Positions 5,148 through 57,123 of a stretch of DNA of 64,000 nucleotides are shown here, in pieces (position 1 is the first letter of the stretch; each line of letters starts with the position of its first letter). The stretch spans positions 2,091 through 66,090 of the forward strand of contig PCCP01000082.1 in the NCBI GenBank assembly GCA_002731775.1, given 5' to 3'. Below the pieces are notes generated by a model, which was given only the letters and a program-made list of their open reading frames with translations, was not told the DNA's origin and ran no database searches. Origin of the DNA: Gammaproteobacteria bacterium. Lineage in GTDB: Bacteria; Pseudomonadota; Gammaproteobacteria; Pseudomonadales; Pseudohongiellaceae. Both the position numbers and the translations under genes were made by a program.

Positions 5148-5187
5148 AAATAGGAATTCCTGTTTTTGGGGAGGCGGTCGTGGCGGG

Positions 5188-5238
5188 TAAATAGGGACTG
5201 ATTCTTTTTTTCCGAAGGAAAAATAAATCTGTCCCTAT
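5188..5238. repeat. R1-type palindromic element (near-identical copy of 3081-3128, same orientation)
   Basis: TAAATAGGGACTGATTCTTTTTTTCCGAAGGAAAAATAAATCTGTCCCTAT. Confidence 0.85.
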
Positions 5239-5243
5239 GTATC

Positions 5244-5717
5244 TCAGTTGCGACGATGCCTGCGCCGGTTATCTCTGCGATCCCTGCGATCCCAACCCGA
5301 GAAAGCATTGCGCCATCGATCATTTGAATAGCGATGACCACCGTGCCCGACTTCATCCCAGTCGTAGCCATTCCAGAAGAATTGCTCGCCACGATTATCC
5401 ACCACCCAGGGCTGATCATAGGTACCGCCTATCTGCACCGCACCGCCGGAAGCTCGGCTCCAATTGTAGCCATTCCAGCGATAGATGTCGTAACCTCCTC
5501 TCCTGCGATCGGTGCCGATGACCCAGCCGTCACCCACATCTGTTGCGCTACCGGGCATGCGTCTCCAGCCACGACCATCCCAACGGTAGATTCCATAATG
5601 ATCATAACCATTACCGAGTCGCCAACCGCCACTGTGATCGAGATCCCTGGCGCTGGCAGCAACTGCGAATCCAAGCACGCAGACTGCCAGAACAGCTTTG
5701 AAGAATGAATTTGTCAT
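5244..5717 (-). CDS. small secreted protein with tectonin-like (Y/F)(R/F)WxGxxW repeats and an Arg/Asp-rich tail
   Basis: Start moved to ATG 5717 (MTNSFFKAVLAVCVLGFAVAASA signal). Repeats IYRWDGRGWRRMPG / IYRWNGYNWSRASG / FFWNGYDWDEV. Tail DRRDRRDNRRRHRRN. Confidence 0.6.
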   Translation of the reverse strand: MTNSFFKAVLAVCVLGFAVAASARDLDHSGGWRLGNGYDHYGIYRWDGRGWRRMPGSATDVGDGWVIGTDRRRGGYDIYRWNGYNWSRASGGAVQIGGTYDQPWVVDNRGEQFFWNGYDWDEVGHGGHRYSNDRWRNAFSGWDRRDRRDNRRRHRRN

Positions 5718-5850
5718 TAGCGAATCCTCCGTTGTGTAACACTTACAATGAACTTTTTCGTTCATGGCAGGCACAGTTTCAACCAGGCCCCCTGAATAGG
5801 AACTGAATCGCAAATGAAATAGCGGATACACTGTGTCTTCAGATTTTTCC

Positions 5851-5875
5851 AAAAAACGGGGTCTGTCCCCTATTT
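5851..5875. repeat. R2-type half-site (reverse orientation)
   Basis: AAAAAACGGGGTCTGTCCCCTATTT. Confidence 0.7.
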
Positions 5876-5985
5876 CCTGCAACAGGAAACAATAGACTTG
5901 AGCAGGGATAGCTTTTAGTCTGGTTAACCTAGGTCACTGACCCACGAGCTCGACTACCAGTGGTGACCACTCGGGAGGACCAGAC

Positions 5986-8893: not shown

Positions 8894-9340
8894 ATGAAGA
8901 TTGTAGTTGCTGTTCTGGCCCTGGTGTTCATGACCGCCCCAATTGCCCTTGCGCCGCAGGAAATCGACCAGATGACATCGGTGTGGAAAGGTGTATTCAC
9001 CGAGGCACAGGCGAATCGCGGTCAGGCAGTGTATGACGGTGCCTGTGGCTTGTGTCACGGCCGCCGATTGAATGGCGCGCCGGACGATCCTGATATGCGC
9101 TCAACGCCGCCGCTGGCACGGGCGAAGTTCCTGCGCGAATGGGAGGGGAGATCGCTTGCGGTACTGTTCGAGTACACCCGCGCGACGATGCCAGAAAACA
9201 ATCCGGGTTCTCTGACCGACGAAGAGTTCGTCGATGTCATCGCTTACATGCTCTCTGTCAGCGGAATGCCGGCAGCAGATGAAGAACTCCAAGCCGATCC
9301 CCAAAATCTCGCCCGCTCCGTAATCCAACAGCAGCCTTAG
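8894..9340 (+). CDS. small exported c-type cytochrome
   Basis: 148 aa. Signal MKIVVAVLALVFMTAPIALA. Single CXXCH (CGLCH). GGAGG RBS 5 nt upstream. Confidence 0.8.
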   Translation: MKIVVAVLALVFMTAPIALAPQEIDQMTSVWKGVFTEAQANRGQAVYDGACGLCHGRRLNGAPDDPDMRSTPPLARAKFLREWEGRSLAVLFEYTRATMPENNPGSLTDEEFVDVIAYMLSVSGMPAADEELQADPQNLARSVIQQQP

Positions 9341-10385: not shown

Positions 10386-11462
10386 GTGTCAGCCAGTGGA
10401 GCCGAAAACAAGATAATGCTAATGTATCGGCTACAAACAGATGAAGTTTATAGGAGCATTATTGTGGAAACCGTTCCGTCCTCGGCCCTCAGCTGCATTG
10501 CCACCTGTTTTCTCTTCATCATCGCAGCAACAGCTTTCGCGCAATCTGACTACGTGCCCCCGAGAACAGAATATGGACATTCAGACTTACAGGGAGTCTG
10601 GAACTTTGCTTCACATACTCCAGTGCAGCGTGCGCAGCGCTATGGAAATCGCGAGTTCTTGACGGCGAAAGAGGATGAAGAAAATCGTCTTCAGTCTATT
10701 ACTGCGTTTGAGGCAAGAGCCGAATCGCACTTCGATGGCGTCGGCGGCTATAACTCCTTTTGGTATGAACGCGCCAGTATCGGCTATGACCTACGCACGT
10801 CGCTTATAACCTATCCCGCTAATGGACGTATTCCGGCCCTGGCGGAGGGTGCAACTATGCAAAGCGGTGGTCTTAGTGCAGATATTCCCGGCGAGCGACC
10901 GGTACGCTTTGTGGTTGGCGGGATCTCCAAAGATGGGCCAGAAGACCGCGGCCTGTCAGAGCGTTGTATCGTCGGTTTCAATGCAGGCCCTCCGTTTATG
11001 CCCAGCAGCTATAATAATAATGTGCAGATCATTCAGCATCGGGATCACGTAGTGATAGTGACCGAGATGATACATGATGCTCGCATAGTGCCTTTAAACG
11101 CTGGCCCAAAACTCCATGACGACATCCGACTTTGGTCTGGGGATTCCAGAGGTCATTGGGATGGAGACACCCTCGTTGTGGAAACCCGAAATTTTAATGG
11201 CTTGACCCAAAGCTTTACCACTTCTCCCAACGGCGATTCTTACGATAAATTACTCACCGAGCGATTTACGCGAGTCGACATTGAGACCGTTGAGTATGAA
11301 TTTACTATCGATGATCCAAGCACCTTTAGCGACAAAATTACGGTCATGGTGCCGATGACCAAAGTCGATGGCTTGCTGTATGAATATGCCTGTCACGAAG
11401 GAAATTATGGCATGACGAATATGCTGCGTGGGGCCAGACTTCAGGAATCGATGGGAAAATAG
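10386..11462 (+). CDS. secreted protein of the YEYACHEGNY family (copy 1)
   Basis: Hydrophobic leader ...CIATCFLFIIAATAFA. Blocks DLQGVWNF, NSFWYER, RTSLITYPANGRIPA, SERCIVGF, MIHDARIVP, WSGDSRGHWDGDTLVVET, ERFTR, YEYACHEGNYGM. True start is uncertain (GTG 10386 or downstream). Confidence 0.8.
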   Translation: MSASGAENKIMLMYRLQTDEVYRSIIVETVPSSALSCIATCFLFIIAATAFAQSDYVPPRTEYGHSDLQGVWNFASHTPVQRAQRYGNREFLTAKEDEENRLQSITAFEARAESHFDGVGGYNSFWYERASIGYDLRTSLITYPANGRIPALAEGATMQSGGLSADIPGERPVRFVVGGISKDGPEDRGLSERCIVGFNAGPPFMPSSYNNNVQIIQHRDHVVIVTEMIHDARIVPLNAGPKLHDDIRLWSGDSRGHWDGDTLVVETRNFNGLTQSFTTSPNGDSYDKLLTERFTRVDIETVEYEFTIDDPSTFSDKITVMVPMTKVDGLLYEYACHEGNYGMTNMLRGARLQESMGK

Positions 11463-11470
11463 GAAACAGA

Positions 11471-11550
11471 AAATAGAGGACAGACCACGTTTTCAGGATC
11501 TTAGCCAGGCTACTACTGCACTAACAGAAAAACGTGGACTGTCCCCTGTT
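11471..11550. repeat. R2-type palindromic element
   Basis: AAATAGAGGACAGACCACGTTTTC ... GAAAAACGTGGACTGTCCCCTGTT. Confidence 0.85.
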
Positions 11551-11627
11551 CTCGTGTGATCGTATAATGATAGTCCGGTACTAAAATTACTTTGATTGCA
11601 TCTATCCCAACCCTCAGGAGACACCCA

Positions 11628-12656
11628 ATGACATTCCCGCTAAAGCATACCGCCCGCGTCGGATCCTTGCTGATCTGCACCACTCTGGCCTGCTCTGGCG
11701 CACTGGCGCAGACCACCGAACGACCCGACCTCGAGGGCATCTGGACCAACGCGTCGCTAACCAGCCTCAATCGCCGAAGCGGAGTTGAACCTCTTGTTGT
11801 GTCCCCTGAGGAAGCCCAGATACTCGCCGCCAGTGTCCCGATCGCCGGCCTTGAGGGTGGCCTGGACGAAGGCGATGGTGTCAACGACACGCCTGCATTG
11901 GCGGGAGATGACTTCGGCACCCGGGCCTACAACAATTTCTGGGTCGATCCCGGCTCCAACCTGGCCCTGGTCAAGGGCGAGTACCGTACCTCTTACATAG
12001 TCAATCCGGAGAACGGGCGAGTCCCTCGCCTGGACGATCCGCAATACGATTTCGAACGACGTAATTTCGGCGCACGCTATGCCACCGGCTTCGGCGATGC
12101 ACGGGGCCCGGAAGCCATTCCCAATGCGGAACGCTGTCTGTTGGGGTTTGGCAACAAGGCCGGGCCGGGAATGATGGGTGCGCTGTACAACAATACCTAT
12201 CAATTCGTGCAGACCGAGAATTACGTCATGATCCTGGTGGAGATGGTCCACGATGCCCGCATCATTCCCATCTTTGATTCACCCGAGAAGGCCCGGGCCC
12301 AACGACGGCCGGTCGCGCTCGAGCAGTGGTTTGGCGATTCTGTCGGCTGGTATGAAAACGATCAGCTGGTTGTGGAAACCGTCAACATCAATCCTCTGCA
12401 GTTGAGTCAAAGCTCCATACCCATCACCAAGGCGGGCCACATCATCGAACGCTTCAGCCGCGCCTCCGATAATGAAATCTTCTATCAATTCATGGTTGAA
12501 GACAGCAACATCTATAGTCAGCCCTGGACCGCAGAGCTGAGCTTTTACGCCACTAAAGACGGACTTTACGAATACGCCTGCCATGAAGGCAATTATGCGA
12601 TGCCGGGCATACTGGCGGGCGCACGCAGGCTGGAAATGGAGGCGGCGTCAAAATAG
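11628..12656 (+). CDS. secreted protein of the YEYACHEGNY family (copy 2)
   Basis: Start moved to ATG 11628 (CAGGAG RBS; MTFPLKHTARVGSLLICTTLACSGALA). Blocks PDLEGIWTN, NNFWVDPG, RTSYIVNPENGRVP, AERCLLGF, MVHDARIIP, FGDSVGWYENDQLVVET, YEYACHEGNYAM. Confidence 0.85.
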   Translation: MTFPLKHTARVGSLLICTTLACSGALAQTTERPDLEGIWTNASLTSLNRRSGVEPLVVSPEEAQILAASVPIAGLEGGLDEGDGVNDTPALAGDDFGTRAYNNFWVDPGSNLALVKGEYRTSYIVNPENGRVPRLDDPQYDFERRNFGARYATGFGDARGPEAIPNAERCLLGFGNKAGPGMMGALYNNTYQFVQTENYVMILVEMVHDARIIPIFDSPEKARAQRRPVALEQWFGDSVGWYENDQLVVETVNINPLQLSQSSIPITKAGHIIERFSRASDNEIFYQFMVEDSNIYSQPWTAELSFYATKDGLYEYACHEGNYAMPGILAGARRLEMEAASK

Positions 12657-12662
12657 CAAATT

Positions 12663-12752
12663 GGGGTCAGCGAACATGGGGTCAGGTCTTTCTTGTTGGC
12701 AATAATAGAACCGGTAATTTGATTCTTGTGCTAACGGGAAAGACCTGACCCC
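12663..12752. repeat. R3-type palindromic element preceded by an extra GGGGTCAG half-site
   Basis: GGGGTCAGCGAACATGGGGTCAGGTCTTTC ... GCTAACGGGAAAGACCTGACCCC, between convergent genes. Confidence 0.8.
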
Positions 12753-12760
12753 GAGGACGA

Positions 12761-13438
12761 TCAGTCAGTTGCAAAGCAGTACAACAGGCCGGCTCCTCCA
12801 ACAGCAACGAGGTTCTCCTGTGTGCAACCGGGCGTGCCGTGGGAGGAATTCCAGGGAGAGCCTGGATTCATAAAGGAGTAGCGGTCGGCGTGGCCTACCC
12901 TTGCGCTACCTTCGCTATTGCTGGTCCAGTTGCTGCAGGTCTGGTCTTGGCCCGCCGGCATCGCGGTGCCATCAATTTGTGAGCCGGTTAGAATATCGTG
13001 CTCAGAAAAGTCGGGATCTCCGTCTATGCGTGAGGCGAATTGATTTCCGTTCTCGTCCAGCGAGTGTGTCCAATTCAAATTAGAATTGTCGTAGTGCAGG
13101 CTTTCAACGCTGGTCGCCATGATTATGCCTTCTGCGTTGGCCCAGGGGCCCGATCCTATGCGGTCACGTGCATTCACCGCTTCCGCCCCCTGCGTACTCA
13201 AATAGGCGTGCCAGTGGCGGTCGCCGGCACCTGCCGCAGCGGCCAGGGACTGGCAATGTGCGTCCGCGCCTTCCAAACCGTCCAAGTTACCGCCATCGCC
13301 CTTGGTAGTGCTGGTGACAAAGAAGCCCATCTCGGGCGGCTCGTCGTCATCTTGTTGCGCGATAACCGAAAGACTGGGCAGTGCCAACACAGCCGTCGTG
13401 ACTGCAACTGCTATCAGGGCTCGTTTTTTATTCATCAT
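12761..13438 (-). CDS. secreted DUF1554/endostatin-like (C-type-lectin-fold-like) protein
   Basis: 225 aa with signal peptide. FFVTSTTKGDGGNLDGLEGADAHCQSLAAAAGAGDRHWHAYLS ... CSNWTS ... LLYCFA follows the FVT..GNLGG..GAD..C pattern I recall for DUF1554 and collagen XVIII endostatin. Confidence 0.55.
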   Translation of the reverse strand: MMNKKRALIAVAVTTAVLALPSLSVIAQQDDDEPPEMGFFVTSTTKGDGGNLDGLEGADAHCQSLAAAAGAGDRHWHAYLSTQGAEAVNARDRIGSGPWANAEGIIMATSVESLHYDNSNLNWTHSLDENGNQFASRIDGDPDFSEHDILTGSQIDGTAMPAGQDQTCSNWTSNSEGSARVGHADRYSFMNPGSPWNSSHGTPGCTQENLVAVGGAGLLYCFATD

Positions 13439-13453
13439 TGTATTCCTCCAGAG

Positions 13454-13535
13454 AAAGTGGGACAGACTACGGTATTCAATTTCTAAAATATGCGTGTTGC
13501 TGCACTAATAGAAAAACCTGGTCCGTCCCCGATTT
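13454..13535. repeat. R2-type palindromic element (diverged)
   Basis: AAAGTGGGACAGACTACGG ... TGCACTAATAGAAAAACCTGGTCCGTCCCCGATTT. Confidence 0.75.
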
Positions 13536-13548
13536 ATTCCAAACTATT

Positions 13549-14565
13549 CTATTCACGGTGTTCTTTTTCCTGCACGCGCGCCCCCCGCAGCGTCGCTGAC
13601 ATGGCATAGTTGCCTTCATGGCAGGCGTATTCATAGGGGATCTGATCTGACTTTGGCCAGACCATCTCGCCGCTATAGGAGTCGGTGTAGTCGGCATCTT
13701 CCATAGTAAAGCTGTATAGCAGACCGCCGTCACTGATTGGACTGAAGCGTTCTATTACACGGCGATCGGCAGCTTGATGGGGCTGATCCAGGAAATTAAC
13801 TGTCTCTACCACAAGGGTGTCACCTTCCCACCAGCCGATAGAATCCCCATCGAATGTGGCGAGGGCAGCTGCGCTGTGTTCGGTATCGTTAATGCGGATG
13901 ATCCGAGACCAGTGCATCCATTCGATGTATAACATCATGTAGTCGTCAGTCTGCACGATTGTTTTCAGGTTGTTATAGACCCGCGGCGTGATGGGAATCG
14001 TCGCCGACTGGTGGTAGATGCAACGCACCGCCAGGGTTTGATTTTCGGGACCATCGTAGGGTTGATCACCCGTCTCCAGCCACCAGGCACCGTCCCTTAC
14101 CGGCCACTCGAATTTCGGCGCCGCGTCGGCCTTGGCCTGGCCTGCAGGCGTACGCGGTGGCATGCGCCCGTTTTCAGGGTAGGTCAGGATGGAGGTGCGA
14201 TACTGACCGTCAATGGCGAATCCATCATTGCCCCGGTCGAACCAGAAATCGTTGTAAGCACCGATATTGCCGCCTTGTTCCGGTGCACTGCGATCAGGAT
14301 TGTCCTGTCCGGAGTCGCGAGCGCGGGTATTCATTTCACGATCTCTCAGCGCCTGGACTTCTTCGGCGTCCAGATACAGCCGTTCGCTGAATTCACTGGG
14401 GCGCTGGAACGGGGTCAGGGTGGAAATATCGTAATGTCCATTGAAGTCCGGTTTGCCCGATGCGGTGCGCGGAAAATCATCCTGGGCAGTTGCCAGGGAC
14501 GGTGCCAGGGCTCCCAGCAGGAAAAAGGGTAGCGCGGCAATGATTGCAACTAGGTATTTTTTCAT
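13549..14565 (-). CDS. secreted protein of the YEYACHEGNY family (copy 3, divergent)
   Basis: Start moved to ATG 14565 (MKKYLVAIIAALPFFLLGALAPSLATA). Blocks PDFNGHY, NDFWFDRG, RTSILTYPENGRMP, VRCIY, WMHWSRIIRI, DGDSIGWWEGDTLVVET, YEYACHEGNYAM. The ORF-track extension to 14613 is repeat-encoded. Confidence 0.85.
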   Translation of the reverse strand: MKKYLVAIIAALPFFLLGALAPSLATAQDDFPRTASGKPDFNGHYDISTLTPFQRPSEFSERLYLDAEEVQALRDREMNTRARDSGQDNPDRSAPEQGGNIGAYNDFWFDRGNDGFAIDGQYRTSILTYPENGRMPPRTPAGQAKADAAPKFEWPVRDGAWWLETGDQPYDGPENQTLAVRCIYHQSATIPITPRVYNNLKTIVQTDDYMMLYIEWMHWSRIIRINDTEHSAAALATFDGDSIGWWEGDTLVVETVNFLDQPHQAADRRVIERFSPISDGGLLYSFTMEDADYTDSYSGEMVWPKSDQIPYEYACHEGNYAMSATLRGARVQEKEHRE

Positions 14566-14575
14566 GGTTGCCTCC

Positions 14576-14650
14576 AAAAAAGGGACAGAATTATTTACCA
14601 GCGCGACTCTCATCCAATGATGGATCCAAAAATAGATCTGTCCCTATCTA
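14576..14650. repeat. R1-type palindromic element
   Basis: AAAAAAGGGACAGAATTATTTAC ... AAAAATAGATCTGTCCCTATCTA. Overlaps the stop of 14648..15667. Confidence 0.8.
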
Positions 14651-15667
14651 TTCTCCGCGACGCTCCTTCATGCGTTCGCCGCGCAGGATATTGAGCATGC
14701 CATAGTTGCCTTCATGACAGGCATATTCATATAGCGTGCCTGCCACCTTGGTCATTGGCATGGTGGCAATAATCTTGTCCGTAAATGTGGAAGGGTCTTC
14801 CAGCGTCCACTCGTATTCAATGGTGTATTGGTTTACCCGAGTAAATCGTTCGGTGAGGTTCTTGTCCATTGCGTTTCCATAGCGGCTGAAGCTGGGAGTC
14901 AGTTGGGAAAAGTTTTTGGTTACCACCACCAGAGTATCGTCATCCCAGAAGCCTCTGGAATCACCGGACCATAGGCGAATATCGTCGTCAATAGCGCCAC
15001 GGTCATGCAGTGGTACAATACGGGCGTCATGGACCATTTCTGTCATGATGACGGCATGATCCTGGTTCTGGAAAATCTGAACATTGGCGTTGTAGCCACC
15101 CCCGGTAAATGGAGGACCGGAGTTAAAGCCGATCAGGCAGCGTTCGGATAGACCGCGATCTTCCGGCCCGTCCTTGCTAATGCCGCCGAACACTGCGAGT
15201 ACCGGCCGCTCACCTGGAACATCTGGCCCCAGATTGGCGGTATGCTCGGCAGCGCCTTCAACCCTGGCAGGCAGACGACCGTCTAGCGGGTAGATAATAA
15301 GCGAAGTGCGAACGTTGTCACCAATACTGGCCCTTTCATACCAGAAATTGTTATAGCCACCCGTACTAGCACCTACTTCCGGGGCTACCGGGTTAAGCAC
15401 GAGTTCGGCTTCTGCCGCATCCGCCGCAATACGGTTTTCCGCTAGACGCAGGCGATCTGCTTCAACTTCTTCCTGAGTCAGAAACTCCTGCGTTCCGAAG
15501 CGTTCGGGCCGCTGCATCGGTGTACTGGAATTAAAATTCCATACCCCCTGCAAGTCAGGTTGGCCCCACTGTGTGCGTGGCACAACATAATCGTCGGCTG
15601 TCTGAGCAAAAATCAAGCTAACAGGGGCTATCAGGGTAGAAACAAGCAGTAATAATTTAATTTTCAT
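14648..15667 (-). CDS. secreted protein of the YEYACHEGNY family (copy 4; close paralog of copy 1)
   Basis: Signal MKIKLLLLVSTLIAPVSLIFA. Blocks PDLQGVWNF, NNFWYER, RTSLIIYPLDGRLPA, SERCLIGF, MVHDARIVP, WSGDSRGFWDDDTLVVVT, YEYACHEGNYGM. Confidence 0.9.
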   Translation of the reverse strand: MKIKLLLLVSTLIAPVSLIFAQTADDYVVPRTQWGQPDLQGVWNFNSSTPMQRPERFGTQEFLTQEEVEADRLRLAENRIAADAAEAELVLNPVAPEVGASTGGYNNFWYERASIGDNVRTSLIIYPLDGRLPARVEGAAEHTANLGPDVPGERPVLAVFGGISKDGPEDRGLSERCLIGFNSGPPFTGGGYNANVQIFQNQDHAVIMTEMVHDARIVPLHDRGAIDDDIRLWSGDSRGFWDDDTLVVVTKNFSQLTPSFSRYGNAMDKNLTERFTRVNQYTIEYEWTLEDPSTFTDKIIATMPMTKVAGTLYEYACHEGNYGMLNILRGERMKERRGE

Positions 15668-15814
15668 GGCACTTCACCGTAGATTGTCCAAACCTGAGGC
15701 TAAGCTAGTATTTTTAACGAGAGTAATCAACATAATATTGGTGATCAAATGTGTCACCCATTGATTTCCAAATCCAGGCCTGATAATAAGAAACTCCATT
15801 GAGGAGCTATTGAT

Positions 15815-16369
15815 ATGACGAATGCGGCACTTACTTCCAAAAACACCAACTTGAAATTGTGGATTGGCGGCGGGTCGCTGGCACTGTTACTCCTGCTGGG
15901 TGTCGGATTTCTGGTTTTCTCCAGTATCTGCCCTTGCGCCACGTCCCCCGGCGGATTCTTGTATGGAGAGCAGGTGGATGCTCCGGTGACCGATTGGAAT
16001 TTGACCACCGCAAACCAGGAGAATCTCTGTCAACTACAGATTTGGGCAGGGATTCGCCCCCATTCAATTAATCTCAATTGCATGGCTACCCCGGAAGGCG
16101 ATCTGTTCCTCAGTTGCTCAGTCTGTGACAGAAAATACTGGGCAGCCAGAGTCGGGCCGGACGAATCGGCCGTGCTGAGGCTCGGTGAATTGGTTTATCC
16201 CGTGACCCTGAACCGGGAAACGGATCCCGCAGCCATGGACCGGTCGTTCAGGGCAAGAGTGTTGAAGTTGCAACATACTGATCTGGAAACCATGGTGACG
16301 CCCAGACCGCCGCTGGATCAGGTGCGATTCGACCATTGGTGGACTTTCCGGGTTACTTCTCGCAGCTGA
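15815..16369 (+). CDS. hypothetical membrane-anchored Cys-rich protein
   Basis: 184 aa. One N-terminal TM (WIGGGSLALLLLLGVGFLVFSSI). Cys pairs CPC, CSVC. No family recognised. Confidence 0.5.
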   Translation: MTNAALTSKNTNLKLWIGGGSLALLLLLGVGFLVFSSICPCATSPGGFLYGEQVDAPVTDWNLTTANQENLCQLQIWAGIRPHSINLNCMATPEGDLFLSCSVCDRKYWAARVGPDESAVLRLGELVYPVTLNRETDPAAMDRSFRARVLKLQHTDLETMVTPRPPLDQVRFDHWWTFRVTSRS

Positions 16370-16526
16370 TCAAAGGAGACACCGATAGGAGAATAACTTA
16401 AGCGAGATTCTGTTATTCCAAGTGTGATGTGAGTTTATATCGTAGAGAGTTAACTCATTGACTTATCAGTGTCCCCTTAGTGTTCTCCCTACAATTCTGA
16501 CCACATTTACCTTCGGTTCTCTCTAC

Positions 16527-17516
16527 CTACGGTTCTATACCAAGACTTTCCAGGCGTCGAGCGCCAGCCAATATTCCTACCATCCCATAATTTCCTTCAT
16601 GGCAGGCATATTCGTAAATGCGTTCGTTAATCCTTGAAAGTGCGTATTCTCCTGAAAATTGGGCGGTGAAAACCGAAGGGTCGTCCACGGTGAAGCCGTA
16701 TATCATTTTGTTATGGGAATCTCTTCTAAAGGATTCTATGAGAGTGAGATTCTCAGCCGGTGCTCCCCGCATCGATTGCCAGTTGTTGAAGTACCTGGTT
16801 TCGACAACCAGGGTATCGCCTTCCCAGCGTGCTATCGAATCGCCCATCCATTTTCTCTGCGCTTTCGCGGCCGGGTTGTGCTGGTCCGCTATTTTGATAA
16901 TGCGGGTGTCGTGTGACATTTCGGTAGTGATGCTGATGTATCCCGGCGACTGTGAAAACTGCAGGTGGCTATTGTAGATGCTAGGCCGCATAACCGGACT
17001 TGAGAAATTGCCGTTCAACAGACAACGCTCACCCAGACCGCGACCCTCTGGACCATCACTGCGACCGGGCCGCCTGGCCCGTCGCTCACTCATGCGCTCG
17101 CTAAATCCGGCCACACGTTCAGGCATGCGCCCATTTGCCGGGTCTGTAATTGCCGAGGTACGGAATTCGCTGTCAATAGTGGGAATAAACTTCGCATCCT
17201 CGCGCCAGAACAGGTCGTAATTGCCGAGTGGCGGTAAGGATTCAGCAACGTCCGGGGCCGAACGGTCAGGATTCAGCGGCTCATTGGCGGCATCGAAGGT
17301 TTGTTGAACTGCAACTTCGAGTTTGAGAGATTCTGCCTCGGTATACGCACGCTTCTCACCCAGTTCGCGGGGCCTTTCGAAGGGCATAATGGTGGCGTGT
17401 TTCCATACTCCCTGGAAGTCTGGCACACCCCACTCCGTCATCGGACCCACATAGTCCCGTGCCGTAGCAGTACCGGCAATTGTACTAATTATCAGTAAGG
17501 GCCAAAGAATTCTCAT
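16527..17516 (-). CDS. secreted protein of the YEYACHEGNY family (copy 5)
   Basis: Start moved to ATG 17516 (MRILWPLLIISTIAGTATA). Blocks PDFQGVWKH, YDLFWRED, RTSAITDPANGRMP, GERCLL, MSHDTRIIKI, MGDSIARWEGDTLVVET, YEYACHEGNYGM. Confidence 0.85.
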   Translation of the reverse strand: MRILWPLLIISTIAGTATARDYVGPMTEWGVPDFQGVWKHATIMPFERPRELGEKRAYTEAESLKLEVAVQQTFDAANEPLNPDRSAPDVAESLPPLGNYDLFWREDAKFIPTIDSEFRTSAITDPANGRMPERVAGFSERMSERRARRPGRSDGPEGRGLGERCLLNGNFSSPVMRPSIYNSHLQFSQSPGYISITTEMSHDTRIIKIADQHNPAAKAQRKWMGDSIARWEGDTLVVETRYFNNWQSMRGAPAENLTLIESFRRDSHNKMIYGFTVDDPSVFTAQFSGEYALSRINERIYEYACHEGNYGMVGILAGARRLESLGIEP

Positions 17517-17636: not shown

Positions 17637-17655
17637 TCCCTTGAGGCGTGCAATC

Positions 17656-18651
17656 ATGAAAGCCACCAACCGCATTATTCTTTTTGTCGCACTGTCTTGC
17701 GGTGCATTTACCAGCAGTACGATCCTGGCCCAGGTGCCAGTGCGCAATGAAACACCCAGGGCTGGTCAGCAGGAAATCATCATGATGCGCCATGCTTATC
17801 TCGAAGCAGGTCAGTATGAATACTGGAAAGAGCAGAGTTACACCGGCGTGTGGCCCTGGTTCGAAAGGCTGGGTGCCCGCATTATTGGCGATTTCGAAAT
17901 CGTCTATCCTGTGGGTGAAGATGAGACCCCCGGCCAGGACGAAGCGCTGCGTTTCGCTCGCTATGCCAGTTACGAACACTGGCAAGCCACCCGAGCCGCA
18001 TCGCCTGACAATCCTACCGGTGGCTCGCTTCGACTGTCCGGTAGCGGGCCACTTTATGACGCCAACAACGAAGGATTGCGCAATAGAAGAACCGTTGCCC
18101 AGGGCTCGAAAGAAGCGGTATTCCTGCGGGGTTACATGGCGGAAACCCGACCTGTCTTTATGCCAGGTACAGCAGAAGAGTTTGAATTAACTGATGGAGA
18201 TAGCGACGTTAATCCGGTAGCACTCGCCCGCTCGGAACCTGGGGACGAACTACTGCTGCTGAGTCATGACAAAGTCACGAAAGGCAGCTTCGAAGAAGTA
18301 CATGCTATAAGCAGAGACGGCGTATGGCCTTACATGGAAAAAATCGGCGTGCGCCCGGTCGGTAAGTGGCGAGTAGTCTATTTGCAACCCAGTACTCCGG
18401 TGGAAAATGGTGACTATGATGAAGTTTATACCTTGTACCGCATCGCCAGCATCGACCATTATCAAGCGATCATGGGAGATATTGTGGCACTGGGTGGAGA
18501 TGGACCTGACTATGATCTGCTGGTGTCCAGTCTGCAAAAAATAGGGGCTCTGACCCAGGAAACTACACGCAGGTTTCTGCGTGGGGCGCTTTGGGGAAGC
18601 CCTCCAAGTTACGCACCTCCCTTAGACTCCGATTATCGATTGGCTAACTGA
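17656..18651 (+). CDS. exported protein with two NIPSNAP-like (dimeric alpha/beta-barrel) halves
   Basis: Start moved to ATG 17656 (MKATNRIILFVALSCGAFTSSTILA). Two similar halves: GQYEYWKEQSYTGVWPWFERLGARIIGDFEIVY and SFEEVHAISRDGVWPYMEKIGVRPVGKWRVVY. Confidence 0.5.
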   Translation: MKATNRIILFVALSCGAFTSSTILAQVPVRNETPRAGQQEIIMMRHAYLEAGQYEYWKEQSYTGVWPWFERLGARIIGDFEIVYPVGEDETPGQDEALRFARYASYEHWQATRAASPDNPTGGSLRLSGSGPLYDANNEGLRNRRTVAQGSKEAVFLRGYMAETRPVFMPGTAEEFELTDGDSDVNPVALARSEPGDELLLLSHDKVTKGSFEEVHAISRDGVWPYMEKIGVRPVGKWRVVYLQPSTPVENGDYDEVYTLYRIASIDHYQAIMGDIVALGGDGPDYDLLVSSLQKIGALTQETTRRFLRGALWGSPPSYAPPLDSDYRLAN

Positions 18652-18721: not shown

Positions 18722-19105
18722 ATGCGAAATTCACTGCTACAAATTGTAGGCCGGGCTGTATTAAATAGATGTCTGATTTGCGTGCTGATCACTGTAGCTT
18801 TGGTCAGTTCAGCCACCGCCGCTGCGCTAAGCTTTCAGGAATTCAGTGTCGACATCCCCGACGACTGGAATTACGGAATTGATGAGCTTCGATTTGCTAA
18901 TAGCCCTGGGTTTGGAGCTACCACAACAATCTCCCGGCCCGGGGACAGTGGAGAGCTAACGATTGTATCCTACCAATCACCGGTTATTGCGGATGAGTCA
19001 GTACTTCGAAACTTCACCAATGTTGATTCATCGGTGCAGCTCGACCTGGAAGAGTGGGGTGACTTCGCAGGCTATCGATACAGCTACCGTGAGAATGATG
19101 CCTAA
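18722..19105 (+). CDS. hypothetical exported protein (possibly interrupted by an in-frame TAA)
   Basis: 127-aa ORF with signal-anchor-like N-terminus. The same frame stays open for 44 more codons after the TAA at 19103-19105. Confidence 0.45.
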   Translation: MRNSLLQIVGRAVLNRCLICVLITVALVSSATAAALSFQEFSVDIPDDWNYGIDELRFANSPGFGATTTISRPGDSGELTIVSYQSPVIADESVLRNFTNVDSSVQLDLEEWGDFAGYRYSYRENDA

Positions 19106-19342: not shown

Positions 19343-20521
19343 TCAGTCAATCGGCTCCAGCCGCACGACGGCCGTGGTCTCGAAATTTCCTCTTCCGCCG
19401 CCATTACCATCTGAAATGGCCAGGTAAATATAACCATCTGGACCCTGACGCACATCACGAAGCCGACCCATGCCATAGGCCAGGGTTTCTTCGACTATTA
19501 CTTCGCGGTAATCGTCGCTCATGTGGAGACGTGCCAGTTGCTCCCCGATCAGGGCGCCGGAAATGATGCTGCCGTACCACAGAGGGAACTTGTCGCCCGT
19601 ATAGACCATGAGGCCCGATGTGGCAATTGACGGTACCCAGAAATGGGTCGGTTGCGTCATGCCATCCTGACCGATGGCCTCATGGATTGGGCGGCCGACC
19701 GCACCATAGTTTACGCCACGGCCTATAACAGGCCAGCCATAATTGTTCCCTGGTTCGATCAGGTTGAGCTCGTCTCCACCCTGGGGGCCGTGCTCGGACT
19801 CCCACAGATCGCCGTTTTCCGGGTGTATCGCCAGACCCTGGGGGCTGCGGTGACCATAACTCCAGATTTCCGGAAGTGCGTCGCTACGGCCGACAAACGG
19901 ATTGTCGCTGGGCACGCTGCCATCATCATTCAGGCGCACAATGACCCCCTGGTGATTAGTCAGATCCTGCGCCGGGTGCGCGGCCAGGTCCCCTCTGGCA
20001 GGAGCCTGGCGTTCCCCGAGAGTCAGGAACAGGTAGCCGTCGTTATCGAATACCATCTTGCCACCGTAGTGTCCGAAGCCGACCGCTTGCGCAGAGAAGA
20101 TTTCCACCACATTGGTCAATTGATCATTTTCGAAACGTCCTCGGACTACCGCAGTGACCGAAGTTTCCCCTTCTTCCTTGGCATAACTCAGGTAAACCCA
20201 GCGGTTATCGCTGAAATTTGGATGTGGTAAGACTTCGAACAGTCCGCCCTGGCCCGTGTAAAATACTTCGGGCACGCCCGGTACCGCTTCCGGCAACAGT
20301 CGCCCATCTCGAATGATTCTCAATCGACCGGGTTTTTCCGTAACCAGCATGTCACCACCCGGCAGCCAGGCCATGGACCAGGGTTGCAGCAGGCCATCCG
20401 CAACCGTCACCACCTGATAATCATGGTGGGCCGCATAGTAGATATTAGATTGCGCACTGGCCGCAGCCGCGGCTATCACCAGCAGGCCGGCACCAGCAAG
20501 CTTTATTAGATAACGAAACAT
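19343..20521 (-). CDS. soluble PQQ-dependent sugar (aldose/sorbosone) dehydrogenase, YliI/GSDH family
   Basis: 392 aa with signal peptide. Motifs GLLQPWSMAWLPGGDMLVTEKPGRLRII, HYGGKMVFDNDGYLFLTLGE, SYGHRSPQGLAIHPENGDLWESEHGPQGGDELNLIEPGNNYGWP. Confidence 0.85.
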   Translation of the reverse strand: MFRYLIKLAGAGLLVIAAAAASAQSNIYYAAHHDYQVVTVADGLLQPWSMAWLPGGDMLVTEKPGRLRIIRDGRLLPEAVPGVPEVFYTGQGGLFEVLPHPNFSDNRWVYLSYAKEEGETSVTAVVRGRFENDQLTNVVEIFSAQAVGFGHYGGKMVFDNDGYLFLTLGERQAPARGDLAAHPAQDLTNHQGVIVRLNDDGSVPSDNPFVGRSDALPEIWSYGHRSPQGLAIHPENGDLWESEHGPQGGDELNLIEPGNNYGWPVIGRGVNYGAVGRPIHEAIGQDGMTQPTHFWVPSIATSGLMVYTGDKFPLWYGSIISGALIGEQLARLHMSDDYREVIVEETLAYGMGRLRDVRQGPDGYIYLAISDGNGGGRGNFETTAVVRLEPID

Positions 20522-24715: not shown

Positions 24716-25204
24716 GTGATCGGTCACAGCAATTCTCAGGATGCCGACAAGCAGCTGAGTGTCACAGATGATTTGTTTAAGTGCCTGACTGAGATGACGA
24801 AGTCCAGCGCCGGCGAATTTTTCGTCGATAACATACTGGGGAATCTGCAAGCCACCGTGGCGGTCGCCAACTCCGAAAGTGGGGGGAGCTATCCTGTTGG
24901 ATCTTTAATTTCATTAATTCCAAGCGAAGTCATGATCAAGCACGAAGCTGGCTGGAATGAGCTTACCAACGACTGGGAGTTTTTTGAGCTGACGGTATCG
25001 GAGCAAGGTTCTGAGATTGCTCTACGCGGCACCACCGAAGTAGTCAATCAATTCGGTGGTAATTGCTTCGGCTGCCACACACTGGCACGACCCGAATGGG
25101 ATTTGATTTGTGGAACCGGGCACGGCTGTGCTCCTCTACCAATAGATCGTGAGACTATCGCCAATATTCAGAATAGCGATCCACGTTGCATCAAAGAAAA
25201 CTAA
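24716..25204 (+). CDS. cytochrome P460-family-like heme protein
   Basis: 162-aa GTG ORF. NDWEFFEL ... GGNCFGCH resembles the W.F..F ... CXXCH layout of the P460 family. A hydrophobic leader is encoded upstream without a canonical start (see findings). Confidence 0.4.
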   Translation: MIGHSNSQDADKQLSVTDDLFKCLTEMTKSSAGEFFVDNILGNLQATVAVANSESGGSYPVGSLISLIPSEVMIKHEAGWNELTNDWEFFELTVSEQGSEIALRGTTEVVNQFGGNCFGCHTLARPEWDLICGTGHGCAPLPIDRETIANIQNSDPRCIKEN

Positions 25205-28846: not shown

Positions 28847-28875
28847 GAAATTGTGTGTTCAGAGAGGTAGACGAT

Positions 28876-29265
28876 ATGAAGTTTGTGAATAGCCTGGCGC
28901 TTCGAGTACTCGTCGCAGCGGGATTCCTGTTTGCCATTCAGCCCACGATCGCGCACCACTCCTTCGCGGGTTTCAGCAATGATGAAGTCAAGGAGTTCAC
29001 GGGCATCATCAAGGAATTTCAATTCAGGAATCCCCACGTATGGATTCAGATCCTGACAGCAAACGCGGAAGGGCAGGAAGAGGAATGGAGCGTCGAGTGG
29101 GGCTCCCCAAATCAGTTGGGACGGCGCGGTATTCGTCCGACAACGTTTCCACCGGGGGCCGAGGTCACCGTGCGGATCCGACCGATGATCAACGGCTCTG
29201 CGGCCGGCGCGTTCGTCGGAGCCAAGTTTCCCGACGGTACCATCGTCGGCCAATGGGAAGACTAG
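28876..29265 (+). CDS. small exported protein, predicted mature N-terminus HHSFA (DUF6152-like by recollection)
   Basis: Start moved to ATG 28876. MKFVNSLALRVLVAAGFLFAIQPTIA then HHSFAGF. Shares an NPH block (FRNPHVWI) with 30863..31240. Confidence 0.7.
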   Translation: MKFVNSLALRVLVAAGFLFAIQPTIAHHSFAGFSNDEVKEFTGIIKEFQFRNPHVWIQILTANAEGQEEEWSVEWGSPNQLGRRGIRPTTFPPGAEVTVRIRPMINGSAAGAFVGAKFPDGTIVGQWED

Positions 29266-29343: not shown

Positions 29344-30255
29344 ATGCATGGGAGGGGCCGTCCGAACGGTAGCGAAACCATGGAGAAACGGATTGTCATG
29401 ACGGTTACATTAAGACACAGGCACAACACTCTGCGCCCATTTCAAACGGCAAGCGCCCTGCTTGTGAGTCTGGGCATAATTATCCTGCTCCTACCGAAAG
29501 CTGGTTACGCGCAAGAGGGAGATTCTCTCCCCGACTGGAGCGGCGTTTGGGCCATGAACGGTGGAACGGTCTTCGACCGAGCCACAGTTGAGGGCCGGGG
29601 CGGATCGAACACGCCGGGCGTGCGAGAACATCCGCCGTACAACGCAGAATATGAGGCGACGTATGTACGCAACCTGCAGCTTCGTGATGACGGATTGTTC
29701 CCGGATCCCTTATCCTTCTGCGGGATTCCTCCCGGGTTCCCGCGGATCATGAATATGCCTGATGTTTACGAGTTCGCGGTGACCCCCAAACAAGTCTGGA
29801 TCATGACTGAAAATGGACCGGGTATCCTGAGGATCTACACAGATGGCCGCGAACATCCGGATCCTGAGATGATGTGGCCCACTCATACCGGGGATTCGGT
29901 AGGGCATTGGGAAGGCGATACGCTGGTGTTCGACACGGTAAGTCTTCACAGTTCGGTCGAGGGCCGGACGATCCTTGATCGCACGGGCCTGTACCTGAGC
30001 GATGCGGCACACATCGTCACGCGAATGCGTAAGCTTGACGACGAAACAATAGAAGCCCAGATGACGATAGAAGACCACAAGGCTCTGACGGCGCTATGGG
30101 TCGTGACCAAGACGTACCGGAAACTGGAGGAGGAAACGCGTGTGTACGACTACGCTTGCGCCGGGAACAACCGAAATCCAGTGGATGTAGAAAACAACCG
30201 GACGCTGATTCTGGGCCCCGACGGGGAAATTCTAAACAGCGATATTCAGCGTTAG
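29344..30255 (+). CDS. short divergent relative of the YEYACHEGNY family (ends VYDYACAGNN)
   Basis: 303-aa ORF (start may be ATG 29398). LPDWSGVWAM, FCGIPPGFP, GDSVGHWEGDTLVFDT, VYDYACAGNNRN parallel the family blocks. Confidence 0.7.
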   Translation: MHGRGRPNGSETMEKRIVMTVTLRHRHNTLRPFQTASALLVSLGIIILLLPKAGYAQEGDSLPDWSGVWAMNGGTVFDRATVEGRGGSNTPGVREHPPYNAEYEATYVRNLQLRDDGLFPDPLSFCGIPPGFPRIMNMPDVYEFAVTPKQVWIMTENGPGILRIYTDGREHPDPEMMWPTHTGDSVGHWEGDTLVFDTVSLHSSVEGRTILDRTGLYLSDAAHIVTRMRKLDDETIEAQMTIEDHKALTALWVVTKTYRKLEEETRVYDYACAGNNRNPVDVENNRTLILGPDGEILNSDIQR

Positions 30256-30862: not shown

Positions 30863-31240
30863 ATGAGGATACTCATTAATTGTCTGACCCTACTCGGTCT
30901 GATTACTCATGTGATGAATGCCGCAGCCCATCACAGTTTTGCTGCAGAATTTTCCTATGAACTGTTCGGCACCAAAGACGGCGAAGTTGTCGAGGTGCAC
31001 TACGTTAATCCTCATACCCGCGTTTTCATCGCCGTCACCAATGAGAACGGTGAAAAAGAAATATGGGATGCACAGACCCATGCCGTCAGCATGCTGCTCC
31101 GCGCTGGCTGGAGAAGGGACACTCTCAAGGTAGGTGAAAGAGTTATGCTCCAGGGCAACCTGGGACTAGAAAATAGTCGAAAGTTGTGGATCAGGACGAT
31201 GACCCTGGAAAACGGCACCGTCATTACACCTGATGATTGA
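30863..31240 (+). CDS. small exported protein, predicted mature N-terminus HHSFA (second copy)
   Basis: 125 aa. MRILINCLTLLGLITHVMNAAA then HHSFAAEF. NPH block YVNPHTRVF. Paralog of 28876..29265. Confidence 0.7.
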   Translation: MRILINCLTLLGLITHVMNAAAHHSFAAEFSYELFGTKDGEVVEVHYVNPHTRVFIAVTNENGEKEIWDAQTHAVSMLLRAGWRRDTLKVGERVMLQGNLGLENSRKLWIRTMTLENGTVITPDD

Positions 31241-56059: not shown

Positions 56060-56088
56060 TTAAGTTGTTACGTTGTGACTGTCCCCTA
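56060..56088. repeat. R7 motif (TTAAGTTGTTA-CGTTGTG) ending in CTGTCCCCTA
   Basis: TTAAGTTGTTACGTTGTGACTGTCCCCTA. The terminal CTA is the TAG stop (minus strand) of 56086..57123. Confidence 0.7.
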
Positions 56089-57123
56089 CAGACCAGCCTC
56101 ACGTTCTGCCCGACGGGCGCCTGCGAGAATTCCCGGCATCGCGTAGTTTCCCTCGTGGCAGGCATATTCATACATGCGCCCATCCAGAGGGTAGTAGCTC
56201 AATTCCGCGGTCCACGGCTGGCTGTAAAGATTGGAATCATCCACGGTAAACTGGTAGAGCATCTCGTTGTCGGCATAGCGGCTGAAGCGCTCGGTGATCT
56301 TGCCGTCTTGAGAGATTGCTATCGAACTTTGTCCCATCTGCAGCGGGTTGATATTGGTTGTCTCAATGATCAGTGTGTCGTCTTCATACCAACCGACAGA
56401 GTCTCCCAGCCATTGGCTCAATACCGCAGGTCGGCGATTGGCCCGTGCTTCTTCCGCCGTGGCAAAGATGGGAATGATGCGGGCGTCATGCACCATCTCC
56501 ACGTTGATCAATACATAATCATCCGTCTGCACAAACTGGTAGCTGCTATTGTAAAGCGTGCCCATCATTCCCGGACCCGCGGTGTTGCCGAAACCAATGA
56601 GGCAGCGTTCGGCTATTGGTATGGCTTCCGGGCCCGAGGCATCGGCGACACCAGTCAGATAGCGAGCACCGAACTGCCGTCGATTCAAGTCTACTTTGGG
56701 GTTCGCCAGTCTCGGGATCTGGCCGTTTTCCGGATTGACGATGTAAGAGGTTCGGAATTCACCTTTTACCAGCGCCAGTGACGAACCGGGGTCGGTCCAG
56801 AATAAATTATAACCACGCAGACCAAAATCCTGGCCTCCCACCGGAGGCGCACCGGTTTCGGGGTCGATCTCCGGGCCTGCAGCCAAATTTTCAGCCGATA
56901 TGCCGGCGATCGACATGGTGGCTACCATTTGTTGAGCCTGCTCGGCGGAAACAACAAGTGGTTCGATACCCCGTGGGCGAGTCAGGCCCGTTCGCGAAGC
57001 GTTGGTCCAGATCCCCGACAGCTCAGGTCTTGCAGAGTCCTGGGCCATGCTGGATGTGGATAGAATAAATAATGATAAGCCCAGGAGGGCTGAGGTAACT
57101 GTCAGTTGCTTGAATTTTGACAT
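56086..57123 (-). CDS. secreted protein of the YEYACHEGNY family (copy 6; close paralog of copy 2)
   Basis: Signal MSKFKQLTVTSALLGLSLFILSTSSMA. PELSGIWTN, NLFWTDPG, RTSYIVNPENGQIP, AERCLIGF, MVHDARIIP, LGDSVGWYEDDTLIIET, YEYACHEGNYAM. Confidence 0.9.
   Translation of the reverse strand: MSKFKQLTVTSALLGLSLFILSTSSMAQDSARPELSGIWTNASRTGLTRPRGIEPLVVSAEQAQQMVATMSIAGISAENLAAGPEIDPETGAPPVGGQDFGLRGYNLFWTDPGSSLALVKGEFRTSYIVNPENGQIPRLANPKVDLNRRQFGARYLTGVADASGPEAIPIAERCLIGFGNTAGPGMMGTLYNSSYQFVQTDDYVLINVEMVHDARIIPIFATAEEARANRRPAVLSQWLGDSVGWYEDDTLIIETTNINPLQMGQSSIAISQDGKITERFSRYADNEMLYQFTVDDSNLYSQPWTAELSYYPLDGRMYEYACHEGNYAMPGILAGARRAEREAGL

Follow-up and report, generated by a model that had tools for sequence, protein, structure and literature searches.

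FABP, CRBP, and CRABP proteins (iLBP) are cytosolic barrels of about 130 aa, in which a short helix-turn-helix forms the lid separating strands A and B. Bacterial FABP-like barrels are exemplified by the Rv0813c/nitrobindin type, which is 10-stranded, cytosolic, about 200 aa in length, and without a signal peptide. ZinT/YodA, a periplasmic metal-binding protein with a calycin-like barrel, acts together with a partner protein and through His residues, and enzymes with a calycin fold are also known. Exported bacterial calycins include the lipocalins and lipocalin-like proteins (Blc; BcnA/YceI-type; YxeF; NE1406/DUF2006), 8-stranded single-domain barrels of about 150-200 aa that bind hydrophobic molecules. 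Among these, BcnA with cytochrome b561 provides an example of a fixed operon partner (PMC9113575).

Here, we describe a family of putatively exported proteins with seven members in the window, the 64 kb stretch of DNA analyzed. Judging from predicted models, we rate the family as new at the sequence level and a variant of a known fold. One copy lies in a conserved gene pair with the His-rich protein DUF6152, an arrangement that points to a candidate undescribed system for handling small molecules in the periplasm.

Family members in the window and beyond

The family proposed in a preliminary description of this DNA is real: 7/7 ORFs were found at their coordinates and strands (Table 1). These comprise six paralogues of ~330-345 aa (long form) and one divergent 303-aa relative (short form). 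A family profile built from 147 sequences scored the six long copies at E = 1e-106 to 1e-120 and the short copy (29344-30255) at E = 3.9e-23; the homology of the seven copies is far beyond chance. Residue numbering throughout is that of copy 4. The ORF of copy 1 does exist from 10386, where it opens at GTG, but the gene itself likely starts at 10464 (or 10422); gene callers in four independent assemblies chose 10464, giving 332 aa. The pairs previously regarded as recent duplicates are 60% (10464/14648) and 65% (11628/56086) identical and are not recent, with every other pair at 32-38%. That the expansion is old and maintained was borne out: identity among the paralogues is 32-65%, closer orthologues of each are found in other genomes, and multi-copy arrays occur in other phyla.

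Table 1. Family members and associated DUF6152 genes in the window. E values refer to the family profile, or to PF19649 for the DUF6152 genes.
Feature	Coordinates	Strand	Length	Remark	E value
Long-form copy 1	10386..11462	+		60% identical to copy 4	8.6e-118
Long-form copy 2	11628..12656	+	342 aa	65% identical to the 56086 copy	7e-107
Long-form copy 3	13549..14565	-	338 aa	most divergent long copy: VRC, HWSRII, ERFSP	2e-108
Long-form copy 4	14648..15667	-	339 aa	modelled protein	4e-120
Long-form copy 5	16527..17516	-	329 aa		3e-110
Long-form copy 6	56086..57123	-	345 aa	39 kb from cluster	2e-106
Short-form relative	29344..30255	+	303 aa	barrel core as in long form, insertion shorter	3.9e-23
DUF6152 gene	28855..29265	+		directly upstream of short form	3.8e-25
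Second DUF6152 gene	30863..31240	+		608 bp downstream of short form	3.2e-19

All seven copies carry predicted signal peptides, seen as an N-terminal hydrophobic segment that ends at an AxA-type site before Q or R (judged by eye). Lipoprotein sorting was ruled out, as the copies are without a lipobox and the "LAC" of copy 2 does not fit. A promoter and terminator scan of 10-18 kb returned counts close to the shuffled expectation.

Beyond the window, the family spans ~21,660 clusters at 50% identity, all labelled "hypothetical." For the short form, about 1,900 homologues were found. The hosts are marine Gammaproteobacteria and soil Acidobacteriota, with multiple copies per genome in SAR86/Pseudohongiella-like members of the former and in Vicinamibacterales and Bryobacterales of the latter. 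Paralogue arrays recur in other genomes, with up to six copies in other phyla. The earlier view that the family matches nothing characterized stands at the level of sequence: Pfam gave no match at E <= 1 for the seven copies or ten short forms, NCBIfam none at E <= 1, and neither resource recognized the family domain within fusion proteins. PDB sequence profile searches with three alignments yielded only noise, BFVD (a viral fold library) nothing below E = 0.013, and a plasmid collection no match. No relevant paper turned up when the literature was searched for the motif string or DUF6152.

Predicted fold and conserved residues

Although the preliminary description could not place the family, two AlphaFold models match FABP/CRBP-type calycins. 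Copy 4 was modelled with a pLDDT of 85.4 and a pTM of 0.85, and the short form with a pLDDT of 79.9. For both, the best PDB matches found by Foldseek were CRBP1, CRABP2, P2 myelin protein, FABPs, and SAHS (E 5e-4 to 7e-4, probability 1.0, target-normalised TM 0.5-0.62), and avidins also appeared among the matches. The similarity is local and moderate, with a query-normalised TM of 0.2-0.3 and sequence identity of 10-17%; for the short form, the structural alignment covers ~205 columns and runs across the insertion. DSSP assigned eight long strands and two short N-terminal strands, and both models show the closed antiparallel up-and-down beta-barrel of 8-10 strands that defines the calycin superfamily. 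A first-strand Trp is a calycin signature (PMC2954199). The corresponding G-x-W lies in predicted strand 41-44, with 99% conservation of G41 and with Trp (86%) or Tyr (12%) at position 43. Calycins also have a Lys/Arg of the last strand stacked on this Trp and a 3-10 helix that caps the barrel. In the family, the last predicted strand (299-307) shows no evident conserved basic residue, and R332 (99% conserved) falls in the C-terminal helix. At the position of the FABP lid, an insertion of 70 (short form) to 150 residues (long form) contains one long helix. From the two independent models, the core is thus predicted to adopt an FABP/CRBP-type calycin fold.

The ordered motif blocks that had been reported are present in the copies with small exceptions, namely SDLQGVW instead of P-D-L in copy 1, DLFW and ESFRR in copy 5, LDGRLP in copy 4, NGQIP in copy 6, and ERFSP in copy 3. 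The C-terminal YEYACHEGNY(G/A)M is identical in 6/6 long copies. Its counterpart is YDYACAGNN in the short copy and YDYAC[NA]ENNR in the short subfamily. The claimed invariants were retained upon alignment of 147 diverse homologues, with R53, G130, R176, C177, G235, E273, E314, and C317 conserved in 100% and H318, E319, and N321 in 98-99%. At least 12 polar residues are >=98% conserved across sequences that are <=50% identical. The two Cys are invariant in all three subfamilies (147/147, 12/12, and 88/88 sequences), as expected for the extracytoplasmic disulfide suggested previously, and we infer that a C177-C317 bond fits this pattern. The proposal that His-Glu and the H-D-x-R-I block mark a metal or catalytic site fared less well. 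His-Glu-Gly-Asn after the second Cys is confined to the long form, other residues stand at positions 318 and 319 in both short subfamilies (C[NA]ENNR and CVEF), and H213, D214, and S237 vary among homologues. On these grounds, a metal or catalytic site built on such residues and common to the whole family is unproven.

Gene context and proposed role

The short form is flanked by two DUF6152 genes, which score 88.3 (28855-29265) and 69.3 bits (30863-31240) against PF19649 (gathering cut-off, 27); a transposase-like fragment on the opposite strand separates the short form from the second. A link to such small proteins, of the HHSFA type in the earlier wording, is strong for the short subfamily, which is almost always next to DUF6152: 53/59 testable DUF6152 genes abut a family member. 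Tandem DUF6152-family pairs exist, and short-long-DUF6152 modules were found behind TonB-type receptors. DUF6152 proteins have an invariant His-His at the predicted mature N-terminus (signal-peptidase site), followed by an invariant N-P-H, and a PDB profile search with DUF6152 produced only noise. About 90% of long-form loci, including the five-copy cluster of the window, are without DUF6152.

The five-copy cluster also has no TonB-type receptor immediately adjacent. The interleaved lectin-like and Cys-rich membrane genes, to which attention had been drawn, are not conserved neighbours in other genomes, and a conserved operon around the cluster was thereby ruled out. Across the family, co-directional neighbours include Esterase, Tannase/feruloyl esterase, beta-lactamase-like, amidase, GSDH, PQQ dehydrogenase, and TonB-type receptor genes, and genes for cytochrome c, a PQQ dehydrogenase with a cytochrome c domain, and a P460-like protein also occur nearby. 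With 88 Pfam families among 91 adjacent genes, the neighbours are too heterogeneous to point to one substrate class. Fusion partners comprise a GDSL/SGNH hydrolase, a DUF3089 alpha/beta-hydrolase, an amidohydrolase fragment, two NTF2-like domains, and cytochrome-type proteins; two fusions carry CxxCH, in the partner domain. The hydrolase, amidohydrolase, and NTF2-like partners act on or bind small, often hydrophobic molecules. Within fusions, the family domain opens at its mature-end motif without a second signal peptide, and in the hydrolase fusions it forms the C-terminal part. Among the long ORFs checked, L048 was the only true fusion; L046, L068, L021, L049, L054, L036, and L067 had no Pfam partner, and L046 was rejected because its translation is a spurious GC-rich upstream extension.

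Our preferred reading, tentative and held at slightly below an even chance, is that the proteins are Sec-exported, periplasmic FABP-like calycin barrels that bind, process, or shuttle a small organic ligand, with the short form paired with DUF6152. Strand A, bearing the conserved G-x-W, would directly follow the signal peptide. The insertion of 70 (short) or 150 (long) residues at the position of the FABP two-helix lid would wrap the barrel, probably stapled through the invariant C177-C317 pair to the stretch at which the C-terminal helix begins. Most likely, the barrel would enclose a small organic ligand whose constant head group, probably anionic or polar, would be recognized by the invariant polar set R53, R176, E210, R216, E273, Y285, E314, H318, E319, and N321, while paralogues would differ in the remaining pocket. 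Recurrent paralogue arrays across phyla are expected if specificity has diversified. As for physiological role, we infer that the proteins may act between the TonB-type importers of the outer membrane and the hydrolases and dehydrogenases of the periplasm, binding, shuttling, or presenting substrates, and that the short subfamily may form an obligate pair with the small, His-rich DUF6152.

The large number of invariant charged residues would also be in keeping with the active site of an enzyme or with salt bridges of purely structural importance. Somewhat unlikely, in our judgment, is that the long forms are periplasmic hydrolases, lyases, or isomerases in which the barrel is the active-site chamber, His318/Glu319 and the Arg/Glu/Tyr residues are catalytic, and paralogues perform the same chemistry on other substrates. 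Such polar conservation within a paralogue expansion usually signifies conserved chemistry with variable specificity, calycin-fold enzymes offer precedent, and catabolic enzymes are both neighbours and fusion partners. However, H318/E319 are replaced in both short subfamilies despite the common core, and the variation of S237 and H213 leaves no classical Ser or His nucleophile. Accessory binding modules more typically occupy the C-terminal position that the domain has in the hydrolase fusions, and no enzyme family was matched by sequence (Pfam, NCBIfam) or fold.

The association with DUF6152 could instead reflect a metal-centred periplasmic system, which we consider decidedly unlikely. DUF6152 would bind a metal, e.g., copper, through its N-terminal His, presumably resembling a histidine brace, and the His of N-P-H; the barrel would cooperate with it, either to deliver the metal or to oxidize a bound substrate in a metal-dependent manner, and long forms might own a site in C-H-E-G-N. 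The invariant His residues, with His-His exactly at the predicted cleavage site, the gene adjacency and tandem pairs, the modules behind TonB-type receptors, the cytochrome-type fusions, and the precedent of ZinT all favor this arrangement. Yet neither protein matches a metal-binding family or structure, most long-form loci lack the partner, and the histidine-brace comparison is speculative. Haem c attachment was rejected on motif and conservation grounds, and we regard as highly improbable that C-H of YEYACHEGNY provides single-cysteine attachment or an axial ligand in unusual periplasmic haem proteins partnering nearby quinohaemoprotein dehydrogenases and cytochromes c. The dipeptide is nearly invariant in long forms, and cytochrome and P460-like genes and two CxxCH-bearing fusions are found, but the family domain itself reads E-Y-A-C-H, with an invariant Glu at the first-Cys position, and the CxxCH of the fusions belongs to the partner. 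Short subfamilies keep the Cys and lose the His, while Cys177 is always present, a pattern that fits a disulfide rather than haem attachment.

A ligand-binding barrel and a metal centre might also be combined. Together with DUF6152, and in many cases encoded downstream of a TonB-type receptor, the barrel would then constitute an unrecognized calycin-based alternative to Venus-flytrap binding proteins. The barrel would capture an imported organic substrate, and a histidine-brace-like metal centre, in DUF6152 for short forms and possibly built in as C-H-E-G-N/His213 for long forms, would oxidize or process it. We hold this broader proposal to be rather doubtful.

With >20,000 clusters at 50% identity and no Pfam, NCBIfam, or PDB coverage, the family is a sizeable piece of periplasmic "dark matter" in abundant, mostly uncultured heterotrophs, and it merits dedicated models for the long form and, separately, for each short form, of which there are two. 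The predicted FABP-like placement and the tie to DUF6152 supply a testable hypothesis for both orphan families, and a family member with DUF6152 makes a defined two-gene unit for biochemistry. Finding the ligand class would show how these organisms deal with imported organic matter on its way from TonB-dependent receptors to the esterases and PQQ dehydrogenases of the periplasm.

Comparison with known calycins

The family shares export and a predicted calycin barrel with Blc, BcnA/YceI, YxeF, and NE1406/DUF2006, none of which matches by Pfam model or among the top fold matches, and which are without the large insertion, Cys pair, and terminal motif. Rv0813c/nitrobindin sets a precedent for bacterial FABP-like barrels, with no sequence or top-ranked fold match to the family. 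ZinT/YodA likewise gave no sequence or fold match, and the His-rich element here is in a separate protein, DUF6152. FABP/CRBP/CRABP were the best and only consistent structural matches of both models. According to these models, the two groups have in common the up-and-down antiparallel barrel, whose first strand bears G-x-W and leads into an excursion ahead of strand B, and presumably a ligand inside the barrel. They have no sequence relationship (the Pfam lipocalin/cytosolic fatty-acid-binding profile gave no match at E <= 1, and PDB profiles were empty). Unlike FABP, the family members are exported and, at 300-345 aa, two to three times larger; the lid is replaced by the 70-150-residue insertion with one long helix, and a conserved Cys pair and a C-terminal helix with C-H-E-G-N are added. 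In contrast to FABP, the family occurs in bacteria and in multiple copies, and part of it is paired with DUF6152.

Members and extent of the family

The preliminary description had proposed an uncharacterized, expanded family of secreted proteins, and this central claim is borne out. All seven open reading frames assigned to it were found, and they align end to end with the described order of motifs. With a profile of 147 diverse homologs as the yardstick, the six long copies reached E = 1e-106 to 1e-120 and the shorter relative E = 3.9e-23, values that exclude chance as the origin of the likeness among the seven. Every copy begins with a hydrophobic segment whose end, as read by eye, is a site of AxA type preceding Q or R. 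The C-terminal YEYACHEGNY(G/A)M does not vary among the six long copies, as had been claimed. The other patterns hold in their order throughout, although a few positions differ in five long copies (named here by start coordinate): SDLQGVW in the first copy, DLFW and ESFRR in copy 16527, LDGRLP in copy 14648, NGQIP in copy 56086, and ERFSP in copy 13549.

Four independent marine metagenome assemblies carry the same locus with identical gene order, and their gene calls place the start of the first copy at 10464, giving 332 aa. Its start is ambiguous: GTG at 10386 gives 358 aa, and a 99%-identical database protein has 346 aa. Two pairs of copies had been regarded as recent duplicates, a view that does not survive comparison. 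They share just 60% (10464/14648) and 65% (11628/56086) identity, with all other pairs at 32–38%. Three copies match near-orthologs at 93–99% among the fetched sequences; the best external match of the other three is 60–70%. Judged by these paralog identities and the closeness to external orthologs, the duplications are old, none of them recent.

Family members and adjacent DUF6152 genes in the window
Feature	Position	Strand	Basis or placement
Long-form copy 1	10386-11462	+	ORF read, motifs, profile match
Long-form copy 2	11628-12656	+	ORF read, motifs, profile match
Long-form copy 3	13549-14565	-	ORF read, motifs, profile match
Long-form copy 4	14648-15667	-	ORF read, motifs, profile match
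Long-form copy 5	16527-17516	-	ORF read, motifs, profile match
Long-form copy 6	56086-57123	-	ORF read, motifs, profile match
DUF6152 gene	28855-29265	+	Upstream of short-form relative
Short-form relative	29344-30255	+	ORF read, motifs, profile match
DUF6152 gene	30863-31240	+	608 bp downstream of short-form relative

Pfam-A and NCBIfam returned nothing at E ≤ 1 for any window copy, and searches of PDB sequences with three different profiles gave noise only. Word-indexed searches recovered more than 7,800 homologs from SAR86, Porticoccaceae, Pseudomonadales, and Gammaproteobacteria MAGs; none carries a Pfam domain, and those with a name are “hypothetical.” When 1.84 billion representatives at 50% identity were searched exhaustively with a profile, 21,660 proteins passed E ≤ 1e-3, 9,576 passed E ≤ 1e-10, and 1,610 passed E ≤ 1e-30. 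Scanning one genome per species for E[YF]ACHEGN yielded at least 600 matches, the best 80 of which lie in Pseudohongiella(ceae), other Gammaproteobacteria, Steroidobacter, Vicinamibacterales, Bryobacterales, and Candidatus Multivorans. The motif string occurs in no paper found by literature search, nor is DUF6152 mentioned in any. At the sequence level, the family is undescribed.

Conserved residues, short subfamilies, and fusions

The residues first described as invariant were kept when 147 sequences were aligned, most of them just 31–45% identical to the reference (copy 14648, used for numbering). R53, G130, R176, C177, G235, E273, E314, and C317 are invariant, with conservation of 98% or more at G41, S122, P133, E210, R216, L246, Y285, H318, E319, N321, L328, and R332; the C-terminal motif takes the general form [YF]E[YF]ACHEGN[YHR]. 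Two short subfamilies were distinguished. The window type comprises about 1,900 homologs of 262–290 aa with the motif YDYAC[NA]ENNR, and an acidobacterial/gammaproteobacterial type carries LEFKCVEF. Because both retain the two cysteines (12/12 for the LEFKCVEF type and 88/88 for the window type) and lose the histidine, the Cys pair is taken as a superfamily-wide feature, best explained by a periplasmic disulfide. The LEFKCVEF type also lacks Gly-Asn, and H-E-G-N is, on these alignments, specific to the long form.

In fusion proteins, a single signal peptide is present and the long-form domain begins exactly at the mature-end motif. Long forms are joined to a GDSL/SGNH hydrolase (L048), a DUF3089 α/β-hydrolase (P0256), a squalene-cyclase-like α/α domain with CxxCH (P0195), and a weak cytochrome c′-like segment (P0237). 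In P0490 and P0487, the family domain precedes two NTF2-like domains, and in P0395 an amidohydrolase fragment precedes a short form. The partners mostly bind or hydrolyze small, often hydrophobic, molecules.

Genomic neighborhoods and the DUF6152 partner

Clustering of multiple copies is general in the family: at least two occur in 36 of 80 17-kb loci from other genomes, with six in tandem in one. Immediate neighbors are diverse, the 91 co-directional ones representing 88 Pfam families. GSDH, Esterase, and Cupin_2 recur three times each, and Tannase/feruloyl esterase, Amidase, PQQ, Beta-lactamase, metallo-beta-lactamase, GST, NHL, and TonB-type receptors twice each. Within 3 kb of family members, a PQQ quinohemoprotein dehydrogenase is the most frequent gene (16/81 loci), and a β-lactamase-like hydrolase occurs in 11/81. 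A TonB-type outer-membrane barrel lies directly upstream of short–long pairs in two loci (L063, L072) and of a long–short pair in another (L005); a PQQ dehydrogenase is upstream of the pair in L073. The window itself holds a catabolic periplasmic set of two PQQ dehydrogenases, GSDH, a TAT-exported flavoprotein, cytochrome c, peptidases, amidohydrolases, and a TonB receptor.

The redox members of this set, with the GSDH being of PQQ type and a sub-threshold cytochrome P460-like ORF included, are dense in the window (3147-5147, 61935-63875, 19343-20521, 5986-8070, 8894-9340, and 24716-25204). The lectin-like and Cys-rich membrane genes of the cluster do not recur beside the family in other genomes. 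No family could be assigned to four exported or membrane proteins in or beside the cluster: 12761-13438(-), with a sub-threshold DUF1554/endostatin-like (LenA/B) match, 15815-16369(+), 17641-18651(+), and 18722-19105(+). These are kept in the same marine lineage and are not family neighbors in other genomes.

The short branch is associated with DUF6152 (PF19649), a family of small His-rich proteins. An orthologous short form is followed by DUF6152 at 20–55 bp in three unrelated contexts, often with an esterase-type gene or DUF885 upstream. At least one DUF6152 copy adjoins a family member in all 14 of the analyzed loci that contain DUF6152, several of which show short–long–DUF6152 modules. In the reverse direction, 80 metagenome loci were collected with seeds from the DUF6152 clade that shares at least 53% identity with the copy in the window; within that clade, 53 of 59 genes testable on both sides (90%) stood immediately next to a same-strand family member. 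Two marine metagenome contigs (L097, about 3590-7700; L098, 4986-9090) carry three consecutive DUF6152–family pairs in tandem, which suggests that the two genes are duplicated together. DUF6152 is missing from about 90% of long-form loci, the five-copy cluster among them. Its partnership with one branch is an unreported association, and from adjacency we propose that the pairing would be obligate.

A 116-aa ORF with a helix-turn-helix (sequence “RKFSSEEKIRIV...”), 30385-30735(-), separates the window's short copy from its second DUF6152 gene. This putative IS3-family transposase OrfA fragment may have split an original short-form–DUF6152 pair. Downstream of one pair elsewhere (L085-L087, 6253-10801), a transporter is followed by PrpF, Amidohydro_2, RraA-like, and NAD_binding_2 genes, with Abhydrolase_10 upstream. 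This arrangement resembles the lower pathway of gallate/protocatechuate 4,5-cleavage; as a single context, it hints at aromatic-ester substrates.

Predicted fold and proposed role

The AlphaFold2 model of copy 14648, from the 147-sequence alignment, is confident (pLDDT 85.4, pTM 0.85). It shows a short strand at 41–44 (G-x-W), a long helix at 65–91, and then largely irregular yet confident segments as far as residue ~190. Eight long strands lie within residues 195–307, followed by the C-terminal helix at 319–338, which begins at C317-H318. Foldseek against the PDB gave only local matches, ~120 residues long, to CRBP1, P2 myelin protein, SAHS, FABPs, CRABP2, and streptavidin (E ~7e-4; TM ~0.5 on target, ~0.22 on query); in a viral structure library, the best match, to an avidin-family protein, reached E = 0.013. 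The short copy was modeled independently (pLDDT 79.9); this second model has the same order of elements with a shorter insertion, and its hits are again those CRABP2, CRBP1, and FABP entries, at a target TM of up to 0.62. These alignments are ~205 columns long and therefore span the whole FABP, including strand A, across the insertion. In calycins, a first-strand Trp is latched by a last-strand Lys/Arg beneath a 3-10 helix (PMC2954199), and the Trp part of this signature is present in this family. Owing to the fold matches of both models and the Trp signature, we class the core as a predicted FABP-like calycin barrel. Membership in the iLBP sequence family was rejected, the likeness being at the fold level only. 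The earlier statement that these proteins cannot be placed is softened by the matches of the predicted models; the catalytic or metal site suggested with it would be a candidate.

We tentatively favor a role for the family as periplasmic FABP-like barrels in ligand capture and hand-over, which could well be correct. The barrel would enclose a small ligand, with a constant polar recognition set and a specificity that varies among paralogs; substrate would be captured or handed over between outer-membrane importers and periplasmic hydrolases or dehydrogenases. Members of the short branch would operate together with DUF6152 as a two-protein unit. That the family is instead an enzyme seems unlikely. 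The many invariant charged residues speak for this reading; the loss of His and Glu in short forms and the lack of a nucleophile speak against it.

Less probable still is a metal-centered system shared with DUF6152. In the latter (window copies and loci L085-L170), an invariant His-His lies exactly where signal peptidase is predicted to cleave, at the predicted mature N terminus, and an Asn-Pro-His some 25 residues further on is likewise invariant, an arrangement that would resemble a histidine-brace-type metal site; no solved or named relative of DUF6152 was found, including by PDB profile search. A heme protein is highly improbable, given that the family domain has no CxxCH and the pattern is one of Cys kept and His lost.

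The family is large and ecologically widespread, and a concrete hypothesis on its structure and genetics can now be put forward. Compared with the known calycin/FABP barrel, the present family, as judged from sequence and predicted models, would be a strongly elaborated, exported, and putatively disulfide-bearing variant.
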